The notes: generated by a model from the letters alone, not told the origin. A DNA stretch of 62,803 bases, filler included, from Globobulimina sp. (GCA_003354225.1; 17 parts of 17 records of this genome joined end to end with filler, not necessarily neighbours in it), one strand, 5' to 3'; numbered from the whole stretch's first letter, positions 26,295 through 62,803 are shown. Made by a program: numbers and translations.

Positions 26295-29200
26295 ATGATT
26301 AAGTGGTATTCGTTGTTACTGCTGTTATGTTGGTGGAGCCATTTTTGTCATAGCCAAACATGTTTGGGCGAATTTGAACTATGTTCCAAAGGAGATTGTG
26401 TAATGTGTTCGAACAATTGTGGTGTATGCGAAGAGGGACAGTATCTTTGTCCGATATCAAAGCAATGTGTGAACTCTGCTGCAGATTATGGTATGTTTTG
26501 CCTATGCCAATAAAGTATATCATGCCATACATGATACGTTATATAGTAAACTGTCCAGGAATAAAAGGCACACATCTTGATTGGACATTATCTGTCGAGC
26601 AACGTGTAGCATTTTTAAATGCAAATCTAAGCATCAATGAAAAATATCCTCAGTTAACCAACGATGCGCCACAAATTGAACGGTTAGGAATTCCATCCTA
26701 TCAATGGCTTAACGATGACGAACATGGAGTACGCAACTCCCATTCTACCATGTTCCCAGACGGCACGACAGATATAATATATGTTTGCATTTAATTTGTC
26801 GTAAAACCCATCAAAATCAAATATGGTTTATATAATTAATAATATTACAGGTTGTGGTTTAGGAGCAAGTTCAATAATATACATTTCTTTGAGTAATATA
26901 ATCACAAAATATACCTGAATATAGCTTGGAGTAAACATGACTTGCACAGTGTCGGCAACATTGTTGGAAATGAAGCACGATCCTTGCATAATTCCTTGGT
27001 GCATTCAGGTAACAGAGGTCATGGGCAAAATGGAGCTACGGTGACATTGTATGCACCGAATATGAATTTGGTCCGTGACCCCAGATGGTATGAATGGGAT
27101 ACGTTTTCATTTTAATTTATACGATATGTCAAAACAATTAATTTATTAAAGGGGACGGAGTCAAGAAGTCTACAGTGAAGATCCGCGATTAACTGGTCAT
27201 TTAACGTATGAATTTGTAACAGGTTTACAATTTGGTGGCGAACAAGAAAATAAATATTTGCTAACTGCTGCATGTTAAGCATATATATTGTATTGTGTAC
27301 AGTGGTTATATATACATAACAAGAAATGAATAAAATATTAAGGTTGCAAACATTATGCTGCGTATGATATAGAAAACGTACCTCAACTGAGGTTTACGTT
27401 TAATGCAATTGTTGATGCTGTGAATTGGGCAGAAACGTATTCCCCTGCTTTCCGGGAATGTGTTGGTATGTTTTTCCGTTCTTGTGAGTTGTGAGACTTG
27501 TGACTAACATATGTGATGTTTGTGCTGTTTATAATTAATAGTTCGAGCGCAAGGCCAACATGTAATGTGTGCTTATAATTCAATTAATGGAATTCCGAGT
27601 TGTGGCAATAATTATACATTGAACAAAGTATTGAGGGATGATTGGAATTTCAAAGGATTTGTGGTGTCGGACTATGACGCAATGGCACAAATTTATACCG
27701 CCCACGGATATGCACAAAACTATGAAGAAGCAGTGTCCATTGCAATCAAAGCAGGCTGCGGTATGTTGTATATATAAAAAATAAGAATCAAAATGCGACA
27801 AATTGCAAAACGTTAACCCAGATCAAGAAGGTACTGATGCATGGCCATTAGCAATTGATCAAATTCCGAACGCGATTAAGGACGGATTGTTGACAGAAAG
27901 TGATGTTAGTACAGCAATTGGAAGATTGTGGAGAGTAAGAATTAAATTAGGTTTATTTGATCCGCCTACAATGGTAAATTATAATAAATTAGAGAATGAC
28001 TCATCTGTTGAAGGTGCGCAACATTTGAATGCATCGCGTAGAATTGCTGCACATTCAATGACTTTATACAAAAATGACAACAATGCATTGCCAGTGGATC
28101 GCCGTGAAGTAAATGGCATTGCTGTAATTGGCCCGCAATCCATTGCTCCGAGATTATTGTTAGGAAATTATGCAACATATCCAGATAAAGGAGTGATTAC
28201 AATATTGCAAGGACTGCGAGAAGGATTAGGCGAAAACACTACAGCACAGTGCACATATTTGGAGAATACTGATTATGATCAACCAGGGCGGTCCGGAACA
28301 ACTGTATATTCTGCACAAGAATGTTGTTCTTTGTGCTTTGAAGATGATGCATGTAATTATTGGACATATTATTGGAGGACTTGCTATTTAAAACAAACTG
28401 GTGATGGAAAGAAAACAAGCAACGGCAGGATATCTGGACAGTGTACCAACAATCCAATTACATCAAAAATCAGAAATGCCAATGGATGTGAAACTATTCG
28501 ATGTCTATCAACTGCCGGTTTTGTTGATGCATTGGATTTAATTAATAAAATGAAAGAAGCTCAACAGTTGTCGGCCATATTAGTGGTATTAGGCTTAGAT
28601 CAGACATTCGAATCAGAGCAACATGATCGAACTACGATTGAGTTGCCCGGACAACAGAATACTTTGGTTACTGCAATTTATAATAATATGACCAAGAATG
28701 ATGATAATATTGCATTGATTTGCTTGTTAATCCACGGTGGCACATTGGCATTAGGTTCGGCGGTGACTGAATGTGATGCGATTTTAGATGGATGGTATCC
28801 TGGCTCCCAAGGTGGATATGGCATTGCTGATATTATGTATGGTGCAGTAAGTGTTGCAGGGAGAGCTGGGGTCACATCTTATTTATCCACGGCAGAATTG
28901 CCCAAACAGAATGGTGACATGAATGAGTACAATGGTGATGGGGTATCATATAGATATTATAAGAAAAGGCCATTGTGGCCGTTTGGGTATTTTTTTTATT
29001 TGTTTGTATACACAAAAATAAGATAAGATAACTTAACAATGTTTTTGTACAAAAGGTATGGTTTAAGTTATACAACATTTTCATATTCAAATTTGAGATT
29101 AAATGTTACTAAATCTACAAACAATAATTATGAATATGAGGTGGATGACGGATGTGAGGTAATTGGAGTGACGGTGCGTGTGAGCAATGATGGAGCGAGA

Positions 29201-40823: not shown

Positions 40824-43800
40824 GAGTTAACCCTGTACATTGACAATAAGGTAAAATCGACAATTACCGCCGGTGGCTTTGATGCAGGAAATACGAAACA
40901 ATTTTATTCTTCATCGATAAAATTAAAGTTACCGATAGAAACAACGGAGTTTAGCATAACCACTGGAGAGTCGCACCCCAAAAAGACTTATATCCGAGTT
41001 TGGTGCTTAAAATGTGTGCCAAAAGATTTATTAATCATTGGTAGAGACTCTCGAAAGTATTTAGGTTTAGGGACTTACGCAAAGAATGACATTAAGAAAT
41101 GTCTCTATTACCATGCCAGGAAACAATTATTTAATATCATTCCTGAGGACGAAGACGTGGATGGATATTTAGATAAAATCGAATATCGTCACAAAGGCGA
41201 TCCCGGCATATATAAAATCGCCGAAAATAATGAAGTTAGGACATTAAAAACGAGATTCGCGATGAAGTCCGACGTATTACGAGCGGTCAATGAAGCAGAT
41301 ATTAGCGTATCTTGTATGGATTTATTCGAATTAACAGAGTATGAAAATGAATTAAAATATGCAGAATCATGTCCAAGTAAATTTGTATTAGGTTTGAAGA
41401 ACGGTGATTTTATAAACAATCAACCGTCGCTAGAAAGTTTTATTCATATTATTGATGATTTGAATATTGTCAAAATCGACAAAGTTGACGAGATTAACAA
41501 AATTATGCATTTGAATCAAAGTGTAAACACAGCGGTGTTTGAACTAACTTCGCGGGAATTACCAGATGGAACAAAAGTATCTTATCCTGCAGTATTAGAC
41601 GACACTGAGTATGATTTGAATATGTTTAAAAAGGATGAAGTTAGAAAGCATATGATGAGAATAACAAAGAAAGCGAACGTATTCGCTCGAGTTACTGCCG
41701 TAAAGCCATTAGTTGTGCACATTAAAGATAAGAAAAAATGTCGATTGGGCAAGAACTATAATTTGCAGTTAGCCGACGACACCATTTTGAAAAAAGAAGT
41801 GGCCGCATGGACTGATAAAGGGATTATGGAATGGCAAGATCAAGCAAATCCAGATCATATTGTTGAGAATACATCGTCAGCATTTGTGGTACATCGATAT
41901 TTAGGTAAGGATGAAGCAAATAATTTGATAGTCGCATCGCGAGCGGTATGTGATTTAAAAGCATTGAATGACAACACATATCCCTATATTTATGACAATT
42001 TGACGATCGACGAATTACACGATGCCACCGCCGATGCAATGCTATCCAACCAAACCGATATTAAAAAGTGGTTCTACCACAATAAATTAGCACAAGCGAG
42101 TCGACGATATTGCGCTATTCGGGTAAAAGGTGGTGTATTGTTACCAAATGTGGTATTAATGGGGCTTAAAAATGCTCCGATATATTGCCATAAAATCGCA
42201 TCGGACTTATTCTATGGAATTGCATATGCGATACAGGATGATTTGCATCAAGGCATTGTAGCCAGAACTATGGATTTAGCAAAGCAAGAAGCATTGGTAC
42301 AGTATGAAAGATTAATTGATCGCGCCTTGGAATGCAATATAAAGTTACATGCAAAGAAAACGAAGATCGGATTTACGAATTATATCCGAGTAAATAAGCA
42401 AATTACGTCCAGCGGCGCTCAAGTAATGAAGAAGCATACTACGAACGCATTAGAAATGGACTATGATACTTTGAAAACAAAGACCGATTTCCAAGTATTT
42501 GAAGGGATGGCACAATATGTTGCATCGCACGTTCATAATTTGGCGGAGGATTTGTATTTTTTAAGAGAGGAAATGATAAAACCTGCAGCTTTGCCACCAG
42601 ATACAGAGAATGGAAAGAAATTATCTATAAAGCAAAAGAATTTAAGAACGAGATTAGTAAAATCCGATGAAAGCAAGAAAATATTTCATAGGATTCAAGA
42701 TAAAATCAAAAATGCGCTGTTATTGCATCATCCGGATATGAAAATAAGTTCAAAACATCGTTTCTTATTAGAAGTCGATACCTCGTTAATTACAACCGGA
42801 GCATTGGTATATCAACAAAGAACAACCGAGCCTCCATTCGATTTATCAGAGGATAAGAAAGTAAGAGAAACGCAATTAAAAACAAAGTACGATTTAATAG
42901 CATTATATTCGAAGCAATTAACTGAACAGCAACAGCGTTATGGTGCGACGAGAAGAGAATTGCTCGGATTACGCGAAGCATTGAAGAAATTCAAGAAATA
43001 TTTAGGTATCAAAGCATTTGACGTTATCGGTGATTGTGAACCATGTGATAGTCCGAACAAGATGTTGTTGCGTTGGAGAGAAGAATGCGGATTATTTACA
43101 TTTGAGTTTCGACATCGCGAGGGAAAGCTGATGAAAATGTCTGATTATTTATCGCGACTCAGCAAAGTCACAGATGCCCCCTCAATAAATATGGTGCCTG
43201 AAAAGCAAGAATTAGCTGAATTGGATACATTTGGAAACACTCTGATAAATTCAATTGAAACCAATCAGAAAATATTTCAAATTGGAAATATTAATCATAG
43301 ATTAGATATTTGTAAGCCAGTTTTGAGCAACTGCTTACCCGCTAAGCTGCGAACGATTGCAAATATTCATCGAATTTATATTAATGACAAGAACGAAGAT
43401 TGGGCGCAAATCAATGTAATCCAAGCCATTCATATTGGTGTTATGAAATTCGCTGCGAAATATCCTGACTCCCCGTTACTACCATTCCCGTTTATTAATA
43501 AAATCAATAAACGGACACATGAATTATACCCGGTAATGACCAGAGCGATGCGGAAAGCGGAGGAGAAACGTTCGCAGGAAGTTAGAAATGAGACAAAAAT
43601 CGAAAGAAATCGGATTTTGGACAGTTACACAGATAAGAATCTGATAAATATGGATACAGCAAATTATGACGGCCGAGATAAATTATTTGAAAACGAAATT
43701 ATTCAAAGTATGGTCAAGGAAAACAAGCATTATTTGTTGAAACCTTTGAAGAATAATATATTTTTGACATCAGATAAGTCGCCGTATGATTTGATAAAAG

Positions 43801-44319
43801 CCGAACAATATCGGATATATAAATCAATCATTTTGAAATTATTGGATGAGTCATATAAATTAAGTCCAGCAACGTTCTTTGATAAGCATTATATGGACTT
43901 ATTAAAGAAGAATAAATTGGCAGTGCGATCGGATGGATTATTATTATACGAAAATCGTGTGGTGATTCCACCAAATTTACGCGTACCAATTATGCAGTAC
44001 TGTCATGTAGAAGGCGTAAACCACAGAGGCACGACAGCCACAGTAAATTATATAAATCGCTATTTTTATTGGCCGCACAGCCAGGAAGATGCATGTATTT
44101 ATATTAAAAGATGTTTTTGCAAATTAGTAGACAAGAAAAAGAAGGATAAATACAATAAAGACAAAGGTCCGCTATCGCCATACCATGTGGCTGGACCCAA
44201 TCAATTTGTATTTATGGATCTATACGGTCCAACGCATGATGGTGGAATGATTATGGTTATGTTTGATATATGGGACGGAATGTTGAGATTAACCAAAGTA
44301 AAACCTCGTTCATTTGAGA
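40824..44319 (+). mobile_element. pol: Ty3/Gypsy-type LTR retrotransposon pol (protease C-half, RT, RNase H, integrase start); truncated by contig ends
   Basis: Frame open from 40824. Protease LIIGRD; RT RAVCDLKALN, TDIKKWF, MGLKNAP, AIQDD; RNase H VDTS..RELL..GD..RW..SDYLSR; integrase Zn finger H..H...YFYWP...CFC then FMDLYGP. PR-RT-RH-IN order is Gypsy. Confidence 0.92.
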
Positions 44320-44419
44320 NNNNNNNNNNNNNNNNNNNNNNNNNNNNNNNNNNNNNNNNNNNNTTAATTAATTAANNNNNNNNNNNNNNNNNNNNNNNNN
44401 NNNNNNNNNNNNNNNNNNN

Positions 44420-51231: not shown

Positions 51232-51716
51232 ATATTTCTATAATTATCGGATTTATATTGTCTGAAAACGTTTCTATAATTCTCGGATTTTTATTAGCCA
51301 GAAAACGTTTCTCTAATTCTCGGATTTATAATGCCCGAAAACGTTTCTATAATTCTCGGATTTATAATGCCCCGAAATCGTTTCTATAGTTCTCGGATTT
51401 TTATTGCCCGGAAACGTTTCTATAATTCTCGGATTTATAATGCTCCGAAAACGTTTCTATAATTCTCGGATTTATAATGCATAACTCCTAGAGAAATCCT
51501 TAAGTAAATTCCGTGTGCCAAATTTCGTATGTCAAAACTTAATATTCTCGGAAAGCGTTTCTATAATTCTCGGAAAACGTTTCTATAATTTTCGGAAAGC
51601 GTTTCTATAATTCTCGGAAAACGTTTCTATAATTCTCGGAAAACGTTTCTATAATTCTCGGAAAGCGTTTCTATAATTCTCGGAAAACGTTTCTATAATT
51701 CTCGGAAAGCGTTTCT
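51232..51716. repeat. Minisatellite: about 36-bp units (AAACGTTTCTATAATTCTCGGATTTATAATGCCCGA) then about 8 copies of a 22-bp unit (TTCTCGGAAARCGTTTCTATAA)
   Basis: Direct reading; the array runs into the contig end. Confidence 0.92.
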
Positions 51717-51910
51717 NNNNNNNNNNNNNNNNNNNNNNNNNNNNNNNNNNNNNNNNNNNNTTAATTAATTAANNNNNNNNNNNNNNNNNNNNNNNNNNNN
51801 NNNNNNNNNNNNNNNNTTATTTCAGAAATTCCTGTTTTTTGTATGTAATCAAAAAAACTTAAAATATAATAAAAGCAATTCCAAAAAAGTTTCAAGCTCG
51901 TTACACAAAA

Positions 51911-58966: not shown

Positions 58967-59208
58967 TATACCAACACTTAAAAGTGTACAAAGGTTAAAT
59001 AAATAAGAAGAAATTTCAAGTTCAAAGCGACGGTATGAAACTGAACTGTTTTTTGCATTGCAAGTAGCAGAATTGACTAAACGATATATTCCAAAAGATA
59101 ACCCCCCCNNNNNNNNNNNNNNNNNNNNNNNNNNNNNNNNNNNNNNNNNNNNTTAATTAATTAANNNNNNNNNNNNNNNNNNNNNNNNNNNNNNNNNNNN
59201 NNNNNNNN

Positions 59209-60771
59209 AAAATAGCAAAACGAGATCCTCCCAAACCGAAAGCGCCAGTAAAACATAAGAAATCTAAGAAGAAAAAGAGCAAAAAAAAACATAAATCCAA
59301 GAAACATAAAGTCAAACACAAAAAGAAAAAAGCATTCCGATTAAAGACCAAACCAAAACCATCCACATTAAAAAAGCCATCTACGTTACGTACAAAGCCT
59401 GCGGTAAAACCTGTGGCTAAACCGGTCGTTCAACTTGTGGTTAAACCCATGATTAAACCACAAAACAACGTCATTAAACCAACGAAAATATCCCACACAA
59501 AAACCGCACCAAGAATAATGGAACAAAATACCTCGCCAATGCCAACAATATCAGCCCCCACACCCTCACCCTCCCCACCTGCCATTTTATTGAATAAAAT
59601 GCAAGATCAAGAAATGAGTGATACCGAATCAATAAACTCAGCGATGTTGGATGCATCGCCCTTTCTTAAGCCGCAGCCGCATGTCTCATTTATGGATCAC
59701 GTGCCGTCGCCACCTCCCTTTTCGTTTGATGACAATTGTTCTGTCAACACGTCCACTACGACCCTTAGTACATTGACCACAATGTCTATGGCTTTCAATG
59801 GACGCAATCCCGCTGCATTGTGTAAGCCAAAAATTGTCAAACACAATAATCCATTTAATAAGGATGACTTTAAGGATACAGAGGCGAACGATATGGAAGA
59901 AAATAAACCCTTTACACTTTTTAAAATACCCAAAATAGCAAAAAAAAGCACACCAGCGGTGGTTAATGAGTCTCTTAAAATCACTGCAGACTCTGATGAC
60001 GACGATGATGATTTAGTTAAAAAACAAATACAAGACGCACATAAAAGGGAAATAGCAGAGCGAGTACGTCGACAAAAAGAGCTCCAGCTCAAGAAAGAAA
60101 AGGAGAAACAAGAGAAAGCAAAACAAGATCAGCTACGAAAACAAAAAGAAAAAATCAAACAACAGCAACAATTACTTGTACAGCAAAAACAAAAACAAAT
60201 GGAGAAAATTAAAAAAACCAAACCAAACACCAAAAATAAACGATTTACACTCAAATTGAAACGCACCTCATCCCACAGCACAGTCAGCAAAGGAGCACCG
60301 TTGAAAGCAGTCTCGTCCATTCTTGTTGTGCCCACTGCAACGGCCCAAATCAAAGTTGTCCGACCGGTTATACCTCGTGGACCTAATTTTGGCGATCATC
60401 TATTAAAAGCCAAACGTGCATTGACTGTCTATCGCGAATTTAAACGCTCGGCCACGGGCAAATTATTTGAAAATGAAAATGTTTTGAATGGCAGATTTGG
60501 TATTCATTTATCGGAATTACTTAAACATAACACATACAGCAATCGATTAATACCATATGCCATCGACAAACAACAATTTATTAATTTGCCGCTCGATTTG
60601 CAAACATTTTGTCATAAATTGTTTGATTTCTGCGCCTTATCCAATAATAATAACAGCAATATGCTGAGCATTAAGGTAGTACCGGAACTAAGCAGCACTA
60701 TGAATATTAACTGTACGAACTTCAAACTTCTCATGAATGTATATCATATCAATGTGTTTGTGTGTGGTTAA
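59209..60771 (+). CDS. Low-complexity Lys/Pro-rich coiled-coil protein (5' truncated)
   Basis: Long open frame from the contig start; no domain recognised. Confidence 0.5.
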   Translation, partial: KIAKRDPPKPKAPVKHKKSKKKKSKKKHKSKKHKVKHKKKKAFRLKTKPKPSTLKKPSTLRTKPAVKPVAKPVVQLVVKPMIKPQNNVIKPTKISHTKTAPRIMEQNTSPMPTISAPTPSPSPPAILLNKMQDQEMSDTESINSAMLDASPFLKPQPHVSFMDHVPSPPPFSFDDNCSVNTSTTTLSTLTTMSMAFNGRNPAALCKPKIVKHNNPFNKDDFKDTEANDMEENKPFTLFKIPKIAKKSTPAVVNESLKITADSDDDDDDLVKKQIQDAHKREIAERVRRQKELQLKKEKEKQEKAKQDQLRKQKEKIKQQQQLLVQQKQKQMEKIKKTKPNTKNKRFTLKLKRTSSHSTVSKGAPLKAVSSILVVPTATAQIKVVRPVIPRGPNFGDHLLKAKRALTVYREFKRSATGKLFENENVLNGRFGIHLSELLKHNTYSNRLIPYAIDKQQFINLPLDLQTFCHKLFDFCALSNNNNSNMLSIKVVPELSSTMNINCTNFKLLMNVYHINVFVCG

Positions 60772-61211
60772 TATGAATTAATTCTGTGTGCTATATCTCT
60801 TGGTACAGGTCCATTTTTTTGATGGCTTTTTACGTGTTTTCGCAAAATGAGTATGTACTCATTGTCGGTTCTATTCATGGATTTGTGCAATTTATGAAGA
60901 ATTAAACCATATTTTCTTCTCAACAAATCATTGGTGTTACATACTACGGCAAAATACGCAAATAATAATACCATATATTCGTGTTGCAATGCGTTATACC
61001 ATTCATGTGTTTGTATGTCCGTAGCACTAAATGTTAGATTTTTACATAAAATACATTCATATTATTCAAACATATTCAATGGCTTGTTATGAGAATTATT
61101 AATGTATCCTCTATTGTTTGGCACCATGTAACAATTAGAAGATCAAAATAGTTCTTTTATGGTTGCCATTGACTGATTTTAGAACTGTACTTACAAAAGT
61201 TTTTGAAATGT

Positions 61212-61432
61212 TTAATGTAAAGGTCTGTCATCGCTGTAAACACCATCTGGCGCTGGAAATTTTCTCCTTACCTCCGATACATAGTCATCCGGTATAGACG
61301 TTCTTTGCCTAAATCCTAAATAATCCGCATAAACGTCATAACAATAATAACGTCTACTTTCCATTGGTTCATTTCGTAACCTTGCTGCTCTTTTTTGTAT
61401 TCTCAATCTAGTTACCGGTGATATATATGTCT
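61212..61432 (-). CDS. KolX / P2X7-ballast-like C-terminal mini-domain
   Basis: RRYYCYDVYADYLGFRQRTSIPDDYVSEVRRKFPAPDGVYS matches the recalled R..AY...LG..R..IP.C.V..IR..FP...G.Y consensus of KolX/ballast. Confidence 0.65.
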
Positions 61433-61459
61433 CTATATATCAATCAACAAAACAAGAAT

Positions 61460-62803
61460 TTATAGATCACCGTGCCCAATTGCATACCCTTTGGATTTAT
61501 ACAAAGTTTTTTTATATTTTTTGGTCAGTTTTTTATCACATTGTTTTCTTCTTTTTTTTAAATCGGACCGTCGACGTTTAAATTCAAATGTTGATGTATC
61601 ATTACGTCTTTTTTGTTTTTTAATATCTAACATTGAAAAATAATCCAATATTATCTGAGGAATATGCAATAATATATTCAAATCTTCAAATATTGCTTCT
61701 AAAACTTTATGACCATGATTTGCTATCGATGCAGTTAAATATGTATAAAAAGAATATGATTCTTCCCGTAAAAAAAAAGTCGATTTTGCTCTCAACGCAG
61801 TTGCAGATTTTGCCATAGATTCCACTCGATTTGTTGTACCACCCAATGTAACTTTCTTCAAATAATCAGTTTCATAAAATCGGATTGATTCTTTTTTTAA
61901 GAATTGACAAAATTGTTTACTTAATTCTGGATATAATAATTCTGTTTGTTTTAAACATTCACGCCATGTACAAAATTCACTTTTATGCTTGGATCCAGTC
62001 ACAATATGATGATCAAACACAGACATTAAATGTTTTTTCTTAGTGTCTAAATCATGAAAACCTTTATTTATATCATTCCATACAACGCATAAATATCTGA
62101 CAATATAATCTTTTGATATACCTTTTGGTAATCTTTTCACATTATATTCTTTTTTATATTTTTTTATCGCAGCAATAATGCATTTACCATAAGTGGTAGA
62201 ACCGTGATTTACACAAACATCTCTATCTAAATCAGATTTACATTTTATTAAATGAGGATATTCCAATTGATTCAATGAATTAGATATTATATCTATCTTA
62301 GTTTGAATGGCCAAATCAGTAATTCTGGTATGACCATCTGCCATAAGTCTAACTGGATCAAATCTGGCTTGTTTATTACACATAATATCCCATATACATT
62401 TTTTGCAACCTTCGGGATCCATTTCACCGGATGACTGTTTAAAGTCACCTTGCCCAATAATTGACCTTGTATTTGTTGGTGTGTCACGAAAATGATCACA
62501 AACAGATATTATATATCCAGTTAACACCTCACTGCACCATGTTGTGCCCTGCAAAGAGTTTCGGCCAATTGGTTTTGTCCAACATGTATCCAGTTCAATT
62601 AATATTTTATACGGATCATCTGCTGTGGTACCATGAAACAAATCATTTTCAATGTAATATTTATGAATCAATGGAATAACTACACTTTGTTGTAATTTTC
62701 GCCAAACTATTATAACTGATGGATATAATATATTTATCCTTAATTTTGTATATGTTTTATCATCCACAGGTTTGAAACCATGCGCTCTCTCCAATTTAGA
62801 ATA
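61460..62803 (-). mobile_element. Kolobok/Mutator-like DDE transposase (5' truncated)
   Basis: LDTCWTK..NSLQG..TG, SSGEMDPEG, MADG, CxxH (DVCVNH), TTNRVES, basic C-terminal tail; adjacent KolX-like ORF. Confidence 0.8.

Follow-up and report, generated by a model that had tools for sequence, protein, structure and literature searches.

A young, polymorphic Kolobok transposon of Globobulimina sp. and a small downstream frame suggestive of the C-terminal segment of KolX

The window analyzed here is a 62,803-nt stretch of DNA from Globobulimina sp. (GCA_003354225.1), in which 17 parts of the genome are joined end to end with filler. It has a G+C content of 31%, is gene-dense with short introns, and contains 1408 N representing scaffold gaps, e.g. 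near 59157-59366 and after 51716. Among its genes are a CFAP65-like gene, a WWE-domain gene, an HDAC6-like gene (E 3e-131 to HDAC6 chains), a glutathione-reductase-like gene, a glycoside hydrolase family 3 (GH3) gene and a Ty3/gypsy-like element. This gene content gave no support of its own to the protist lineage inferred in the first-pass annotation. The GH3 gene, identified by its C-terminal domain, occupies 27785-29026 on the plus strand amid otherwise animal-like genes. A long plus-strand ORF at 40824-44375 contains RT-RNase H and integrase zinc-binding domains and represents the pol region of a Ty3/gypsy-like retrotransposon. At 51235-51738 two tandem arrays abut each other; their repeat units, 36/37 nt and 22 nt long, have TTCTCGGAAAACGTTTCTATAA-like cores in common, and the arrays terminate at a run of N. 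Scans of the whole window against Rfam and for tRNAs produced no match.

The far end of the window is occupied by a cut-and-paste DNA transposon that carries, on the minus strand, a long transposase ORF closed by a TAA stop at 61462-61460 and, behind it, a much smaller open frame (Table 1). The first-pass annotation of this DNA had described a DDE transposase with D, D, CxxH and E motifs ending at 61460, and each of these motifs was located in the minus-strand ORF. A His/Cys finger was found in addition between CxxH and the catalytic E; the cysteine at its third position is kept in all 14 aligned sequences that cover the site, and D156, N325 and E328 were invariant or nearly so in two alignments with relatives.

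Table 1 Positions of features in and around the transposon, numbered from the first nucleotide of the window
Feature	Position	Strand	Remarks
Transposon, part within the window	60675..62803	minus	at least 2129 nt; other end beyond window
TTAA target site	60671..60674	.	adjoins element end; contig breakpoints; boundary string occurs once in window
DDE transposase ORF	61460..62803	minus	447 codons + stop; N-terminus cut by window end
LDTCW	62593-62579	minus	transposase motif
MADGH	62344-62330	minus	transposase motif
CVNH (CxxH)	62215-62204	minus	transposase motif
His/Cys finger, H-x6/7-H-x4-C-x4-C	61955..62014	minus	residues 265-283; between CxxH and catalytic E
NRVES	61831-61817	minus	transposase motif, with catalytic E
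Candidate intron, 80 nt	61487-61408	minus	donor GTATGC, acceptor AACTAG; a little longer than local introns and with a less strong acceptor; would join ..YKSKG to LRIQK..
Candidate intron, 55 nt	61487-61433	minus	donor GTATGC, acceptor ATATAG; size and acceptor closest to local introns; runs into a stop after 8 codons
Candidate intron, 38 nt	61470-61433	minus	GTGATC / ATATAG; far below local range, poor donor; fuses frames
Small frame	61212..61439	minus	75 codons + stop; open 61439-61215, stop 61214-61212
YYCY	61338..61349	minus	proposed equivalents of ballast Y550 and Y/F553
IPDDYVSEVRRKFPAPDGVYSD	61230..61295	minus	third ballast motif; 7 of 12 positions, exact spacing
Second open frame	60771..61061	minus	97 codons; element 3' region; same reading frame as small frame

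Relatives of the transposase were collected with HMMER from 1.84 billion representative sequences. At E-value thresholds of 0.001, 1e-10 and 1e-30, 31, 18 and 8 relatives were obtained, respectively, the best having an E-value of 2.9e-47; all came from short contigs. The window transposase itself matched no Pfam family. A Pfam scan that covered 19 of the 31 relatives detected PF20700, named 'Mutator-like transposase', above the curated cutoff in four and at E ≤ 0.1 in six, and the same family was present in 24 of the 30 hits for the transposase in a language-model atlas; a literature search for PF20700 returned no paper. An AlphaFold2 model, built with a 16-sequence alignment, reached a pLDDT of 80.4. 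Its top fold matches in the PDB were the ISCth4, Hermes and P-element transposases, with a single row at E ≤ 0.001 and low TM scores (0.2-0.4). A profile of the transposase family compared with PDB sequences gave chance-level rows only. The predicted structure is that of a DDE enzyme of the RNase-H type into which a helical domain is inserted.

Contigs from three public sequencing runs of one sample were compared with positions 60400-62803; one of the runs yielded no matching contig. Three contigs track the host flank to 60674 or 60675 and then diverge, which identifies an empty site; the first shows no difference from the window, the second a single one, and the third 39 over 274 nt. Another contig agrees with the window at every position of 60671-61157 and has 26 other letters before 60671, which marks it as a second copy with another flank, also adjoining TTAA. 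Contigs of the element overall were 99-100% identical to the window. Because the contig breakpoints fall at 60671 and 60675, the element ends at 60675, beside the TTAA. The plus strand reads ..CTGAGCA TTAA GGTAGTACC.. across this boundary, so that the terminus is 5'-GGTAGTACC going inward on the plus strand, or ..GGTACTACC-3' on the strand of the transposase. Of the other copies and TTAA duplications whose recovery had been proposed earlier, a second copy with a different flank and a TTAA at one end were recovered; the other end lies outside the window.

The insertion interrupts a host ORF (59413-60771, plus strand) in its 3' part. The ORF reads on into the element (..MLSIK, then VVPEL..), and the empty allele continues differently after ..MLSIK. 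The insertion is polymorphic or heterozygous, with the empty site present in the same sample, and the data solidly identify a young, polymorphic Kolobok element. As a polymorphic insertion located in a host ORF, the transposon has probably retained its activity in this genome and could be used experimentally. The contig with 39 differences covers 60401-60674 and has the same empty-site continuation as the others; it represents a diverged second copy of the host gene, an allele of it or its version in a related strain.

Assignment to a superfamily was based on the transposase and the one visible terminus. Kolobok elements are described as generating TTAA target duplications and as having 5'-RR..YY-3' termini (PMC9587614, Kojima and Bao 2022). 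According to the available portion of that paper, almost all Kolobok transposases, unlike those of MuDR, P and hAT, have a zinc finger located after C/DxxH and before the last E, and the third-position cysteine of the finger is very conserved. At the present locus, the DDE triad and CxxH are provided by LDTCW, MADGH, CVNH and NRVES, and the His/Cys finger follows CxxH and precedes the catalytic E. The visible terminus is GG inward (CC-3' on the transposase strand), and TTAA adjoins the sole boundary inside the window, the other end being beyond it. Because DDE and CxxH motifs, finger, TTAA at the boundary and 5'-GG terminus occur together, the element is well supported as a Kolobok-superfamily DNA transposon, within the limits of a single visible end, in agreement with the Kolobok-type designation first given to its transposase.

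A membership in the MULEs (MuDR superfamily) instead of Kolobok would account for the PF20700 matches of the relatives and for the best fold match, ISCth4, which is an IS256-family transposase. IS256 elements are the bacterial kin of MULEs, and target duplications of MULEs are ~8-11 bp. We consider this assignment highly improbable, however. The 'Mutator-like' name comes from the Pfam matches of the relatives, while the window protein matches no Pfam family; TTAA stands at the boundary and is present in the empty site; the terminus is GG; and a finger between CxxH and E is reported to be absent from MuDR in the accessible text of PMC9587614. PiggyBac was also evaluated and rejected: it has the TTAA target in common with Kolobok, but its transposase is of a DDD type of its own and its termini are described there as other than RR/YY, whereas the terminus here is GG, the transposase has CxxH, and its fold matched ISCth4, Hermes and the P element.

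The small frame encodes ..MESRRYYCYDVYADYLGFRQRTSIPDDYVSEVRRKFPAPDGVYSDDRPLH. It had been noted initially as a same-strand frame about 50 nt downstream of the transposase, lacking an ATG near its start. The frame does follow the transposase on the same strand, but it opens 21 nt past the transposase stop, the RRYYCY string lies ~105 nt past the stop, and, contrary to the claim about the start codon, an ATG in frame is present at 61364-61362, separated from RRYYCY by a distance of two codons. An open frame of at least 75 codons on one strand arose in 12% of 20,000 random sequences of equal composition. The codon-usage score of the small frame, 0.090 per codon, is practically that of the mean of coding windows (0.089), with the transposase at 0.106; short non-genic ORFs had a mean score of -0.109, and ~5% of 113 such ORFs scored as high as the small frame. 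The length of the frame alone is therefore not beyond chance, while its codon usage and its motif match, described below, exceed chance.

The second open frame in the 3' region of the element is longer, with a chance probability of 0.022 for at least 97 codons, and has an intermediate codon score (-0.011). It gave no meaningful match, its best rows being a zf-C2H2-like Pfam family (E 0.59) and a PDB row (E 2.1). A consensus GTAAGT donor is also present on the minus strand at 61188-61193, just past the small-frame stop codon; it is followed by AG sites and could belong to an intron in the 3' untranslated region.

The first-pass annotation had further proposed that either of two GT..AG introns, of 80 nt and 38 nt, would fuse the small frame to the transposase; both are present in the sequence and keep the frame. 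For comparison, introns elsewhere in the window were inferred by joining adjacent long ORFs, with one junction read directly; eight junctions were retained, and those with no candidate, or with only long or ambiguous candidates, were excluded. The resulting lengths were 58, 58, 60, 63, 64, 66, 71 and 72 nt, and three of the eight introns have a GTATGT donor. The 38-nt candidate is shorter than all eight, and the 80-nt candidate exceeds their range. The donor of the 80-nt candidate directly follows a conserved YK..G, where the tails of the relatives become unlike each other. Most relatives' ORFs stop 4-15 variable residues past this motif, as does that of the window transposase, whose last 14 residues (past residue 434) are predicted to be disordered. 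A disordered tail and variable ends after YK..G would be expected both if the protein naturally ended here and if an intron began here. If the small frame is joined to the transposase, the candidate intron at 61487-61408 would be the only option that resembles local introns.

The small frame had originally been likened to KolX and to the C-terminal ballast of P2X7. The third motif of the ballast is given as (L/I/V)PSC(C/S)x3IRx2(F/Y)Px5Y(S/T)G (PMC7016195, Rump et al. 2020), and the consulted part of the same source describes Y550, Y/F553 and F/Y581-P582 as strikingly conserved in the ballast/ZCD. The domain has seven or eight zinc-binding cysteines in three clusters (PxWCxCx2C; LCCRx3GxC..; ..PSC(C/S)..) and GDP contacts at R546, H547, R574, R578 and K583; most of these contacts are, according to that paper, also missing from invertebrate ZCDs. 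In the window peptide, IPDDYVSEVRRKFPAPDGVYSD matches the third motif at seven of 12 positions with exact spacing. The mismatches comprise the S, C and C/S positions, where D, D and Y replace the three Cys/Ser residues, a V for I, and the absent final G. Equivalents of F581 and P582 are present, and YYCY would supply those of Y550 and Y/F553, one residue nearer the motif than in P2X7. Helices predicted at peptide residues 23-38 and 50-57 overlie both motif regions, as they are reported to do in the ballast (PMC7016195, as far as its text was available).

A six-frame scan of the whole window found a score of seven of 12 at three of 125,476 positions. When 20,000 random sequences of 785 nt were generated to match the 3' region of the element in composition, 0.82% of them contained a match this good in any frame. 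A Y-x-x-[YF] at the right distance upstream occurs at 1.25% of positions and is absent at the other two places that score seven of 12. The joint chance of motif match and upstream Y..Y would be ~1e-4 if the two are independent, for a motif test that was chosen after the peptide had been seen.

Other residues of the domain have diverged further. Of the seven positions listed as highly conserved in Metazoa in the retrieved part of PMC7016195, the peptide keeps Y550, Y/F553 and P570 and has lost A549, W559, I/V568 and C572. At the five GDP-contact positions, in the numbering of that paper, it reads E, S, V, R and A, so that R578 alone is kept. None of the six frames of 60675-62803 contains cysteine cluster 1 or 2, also when the patterns were relaxed. 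Judged by its residues, the peptide is not a ballast domain proper, since it has no zinc site and one GDP-contact position.

Database searches with the peptide were negative throughout. It matched no Pfam family and no PDB sequence at E ≤ 10, although Pfam includes a P2X7 C-terminal family and the PDB sequences include P2X7 entries. A word-based search of 5.8 billion proteins, over the longer and near length ranges, gave no match, and the best hit in the language-model atlas was DUF559 at 0.86, below the meaningful level. The single-sequence model of the peptide was poor (pLDDT 61.3). In the fold comparison with the P2X7 ballast suggested at the outset, Foldseek returned 38 rows, none at E ≤ 0.001 and none of them a P2X7 chain, with a model too weak to decide for or against the ballast fold. 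Among 33 relatives the motif was found in none, the best score being five of 12. DNA of related elements was found in none of the metagenome, prokaryote genome or viral contigs, and a literature search for Kolobok with bdelloid returned nothing on this question. The filters of HMMER discard matches with a per-sequence probability above ~1e-5; because of these filters a weak true relation would be hidden, and the negative results do not exclude one. The initial likening to KolX and the ballast is partly supported by the third motif, with its exact spacing and upstream Y..Y, but finds no counterpart in profile, sequence or fold searches or in the cysteine clusters, and the label of a reduced KolX without its Cys-rich zinc part is apt as a description of resemblance but not as a statement of family membership.

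We propose the following explanation for the locus. A young, low-copy Kolobok transposon is inserted at TTAA in the 3' part of the host ORF, with the empty site also present in the same sample. KolX is the ballast-type accessory protein of such elements, and the last ~45 residues of the small frame would most likely be a cysteine-free relative of its C-terminal two-helix segment. The frame could be expressed through the 80-nt splice to the transposase, or translation could start at the ATG that it contains at 61364, and we would guess that its product is a basic helical tail modulating the transposase rather than a nucleotide sensor. The data show the element boundary, the family features of the transposase, the open frame, its codon usage and the motif match; homology of the frame to KolX, its expression and any function are inferred. 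We assign this explanation as a whole, a Kolobok element with a coding-like relative of the KolX tail, a probability of about 0.5; that the frame probably encodes a protein, and one probably akin to the C-terminal KolX segment, is, taken by itself, likewise an evenly balanced proposition.

The main challenge to a coding role is that the small frame could be non-coding subterminal transposon sequence with a coincidental likeness to the ballast motif. Every database and fold search of the peptide was blank, 12% of random sequences contain a frame of this length, a score of seven of 12 is reached at two further places in the window, and the ORFs of the relatives end at about the same point as that of the window; a codon usage at the coding mean and above ~95% of short non-genic ORFs, a motif chance of 0.0082 that falls to ~1e-4 with the upstream Y..Y if independent, and an element type known to carry KolX nevertheless make coincidence a somewhat unlikely account. 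Decay offers a different account of the same residues, in which the frame is a remnant of a once complete KolX gene without present function. This would explain why no more than the last third of the domain is recognizable and why cysteine clusters 1 and 2 occur in no frame of 60675-62803. The motif-3 cysteines have been replaced, yet the non-cysteine positions and the spacing are kept, and the frame is still open with coding-like codon usage, which is more like divergence under selection than decay; as the copies are near-identical, decay within the family cannot be judged. We regard a functionless remnant as quite improbable.

Alternatively, splicing might add the peptide to the C-terminus of the transposase as a KolX module with a guanine-nucleotide-sensing role. 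The reading frame is preserved across the 80-nt GT..AG intron, whose GTATGC donor resembles the GTATGT found in three of the eight local introns and stands right after the conserved YK..G, and the transposase tail past residue 434 is predicted to be disordered. Yet both fusing introns fall outside the local 58-72 nt, at 80 nt above it and at 38 nt far below it, the AACTAG acceptor is less T-rich than local acceptors, and a competing 55-nt intron, which has the best local-like features, bypasses the small frame. With one of five GDP contacts (the R578 equivalent) and no zinc site, a fused and nucleotide-sensing module seems improbable to us, and the role of a nucleotide-sensing regulator, as first suggested for the peptide, is weakened by the loss of four of the five published contact positions. 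It is equally improbable that, in this Kolobok lineage, the transposase has gained a spliced C-terminal exon from what is left of KolX, a minimal two-helix piece without cysteines.

Should the spliced-exon version nonetheless be true, the element would be a living case of the capture of a KolX segment by a gene as its terminal exon, which is how the P2X7 tail has been proposed to have arisen, and it would imply that a KolX segment can work without the zinc site. If the small frame is a true, expressed relative of KolX in the sense of our preferred explanation, it would delimit the smallest conserved core of the module, without zinc cysteines. Such a module, attached to or beside the transposase, could help to explain the role of KolX in transposition. 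Overall, the locus contains an ordinary young transposon whose accessory frame is suggestive but unproven, and which would be a modest variant of a described system.

Kolobok elements have already been described in the literature, as has the connection of KolX with the ballast of P2X7. Compared with the ballast/ZCD as presented in the available text of PMC7016195, the window peptide is alike in the spacing of motif 3, in seven of its 12 positions, in the equivalents of F/Y581-P582 and R578, and in the equivalents of Y550 and Y/F553 upstream. It differs in having neither cluster 1 nor cluster 2, in the replacement of the cluster 3 cysteines by D, D and Y, in the loss of four of five GDP contacts, in motif parts that lie one residue closer together, and in giving no profile or fold match. 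The Kol0 lineage of Kolobok encodes a transposase plus KolX (PMC9587614, in the part consulted). The present element resembles it in a CxxH DDE transposase with a zinc-finger-like motif before the catalytic E, in the TTAA insertion site and purine-purine terminus, and in an additional same-strand frame resembling KolX. Unlike in Kol0 as described there, this extra frame has only 50-75 codons, covers the last KolX motif only and is without any zinc-binding cysteine, and it follows the transposase immediately, a position in which it might act as a spliced exon.
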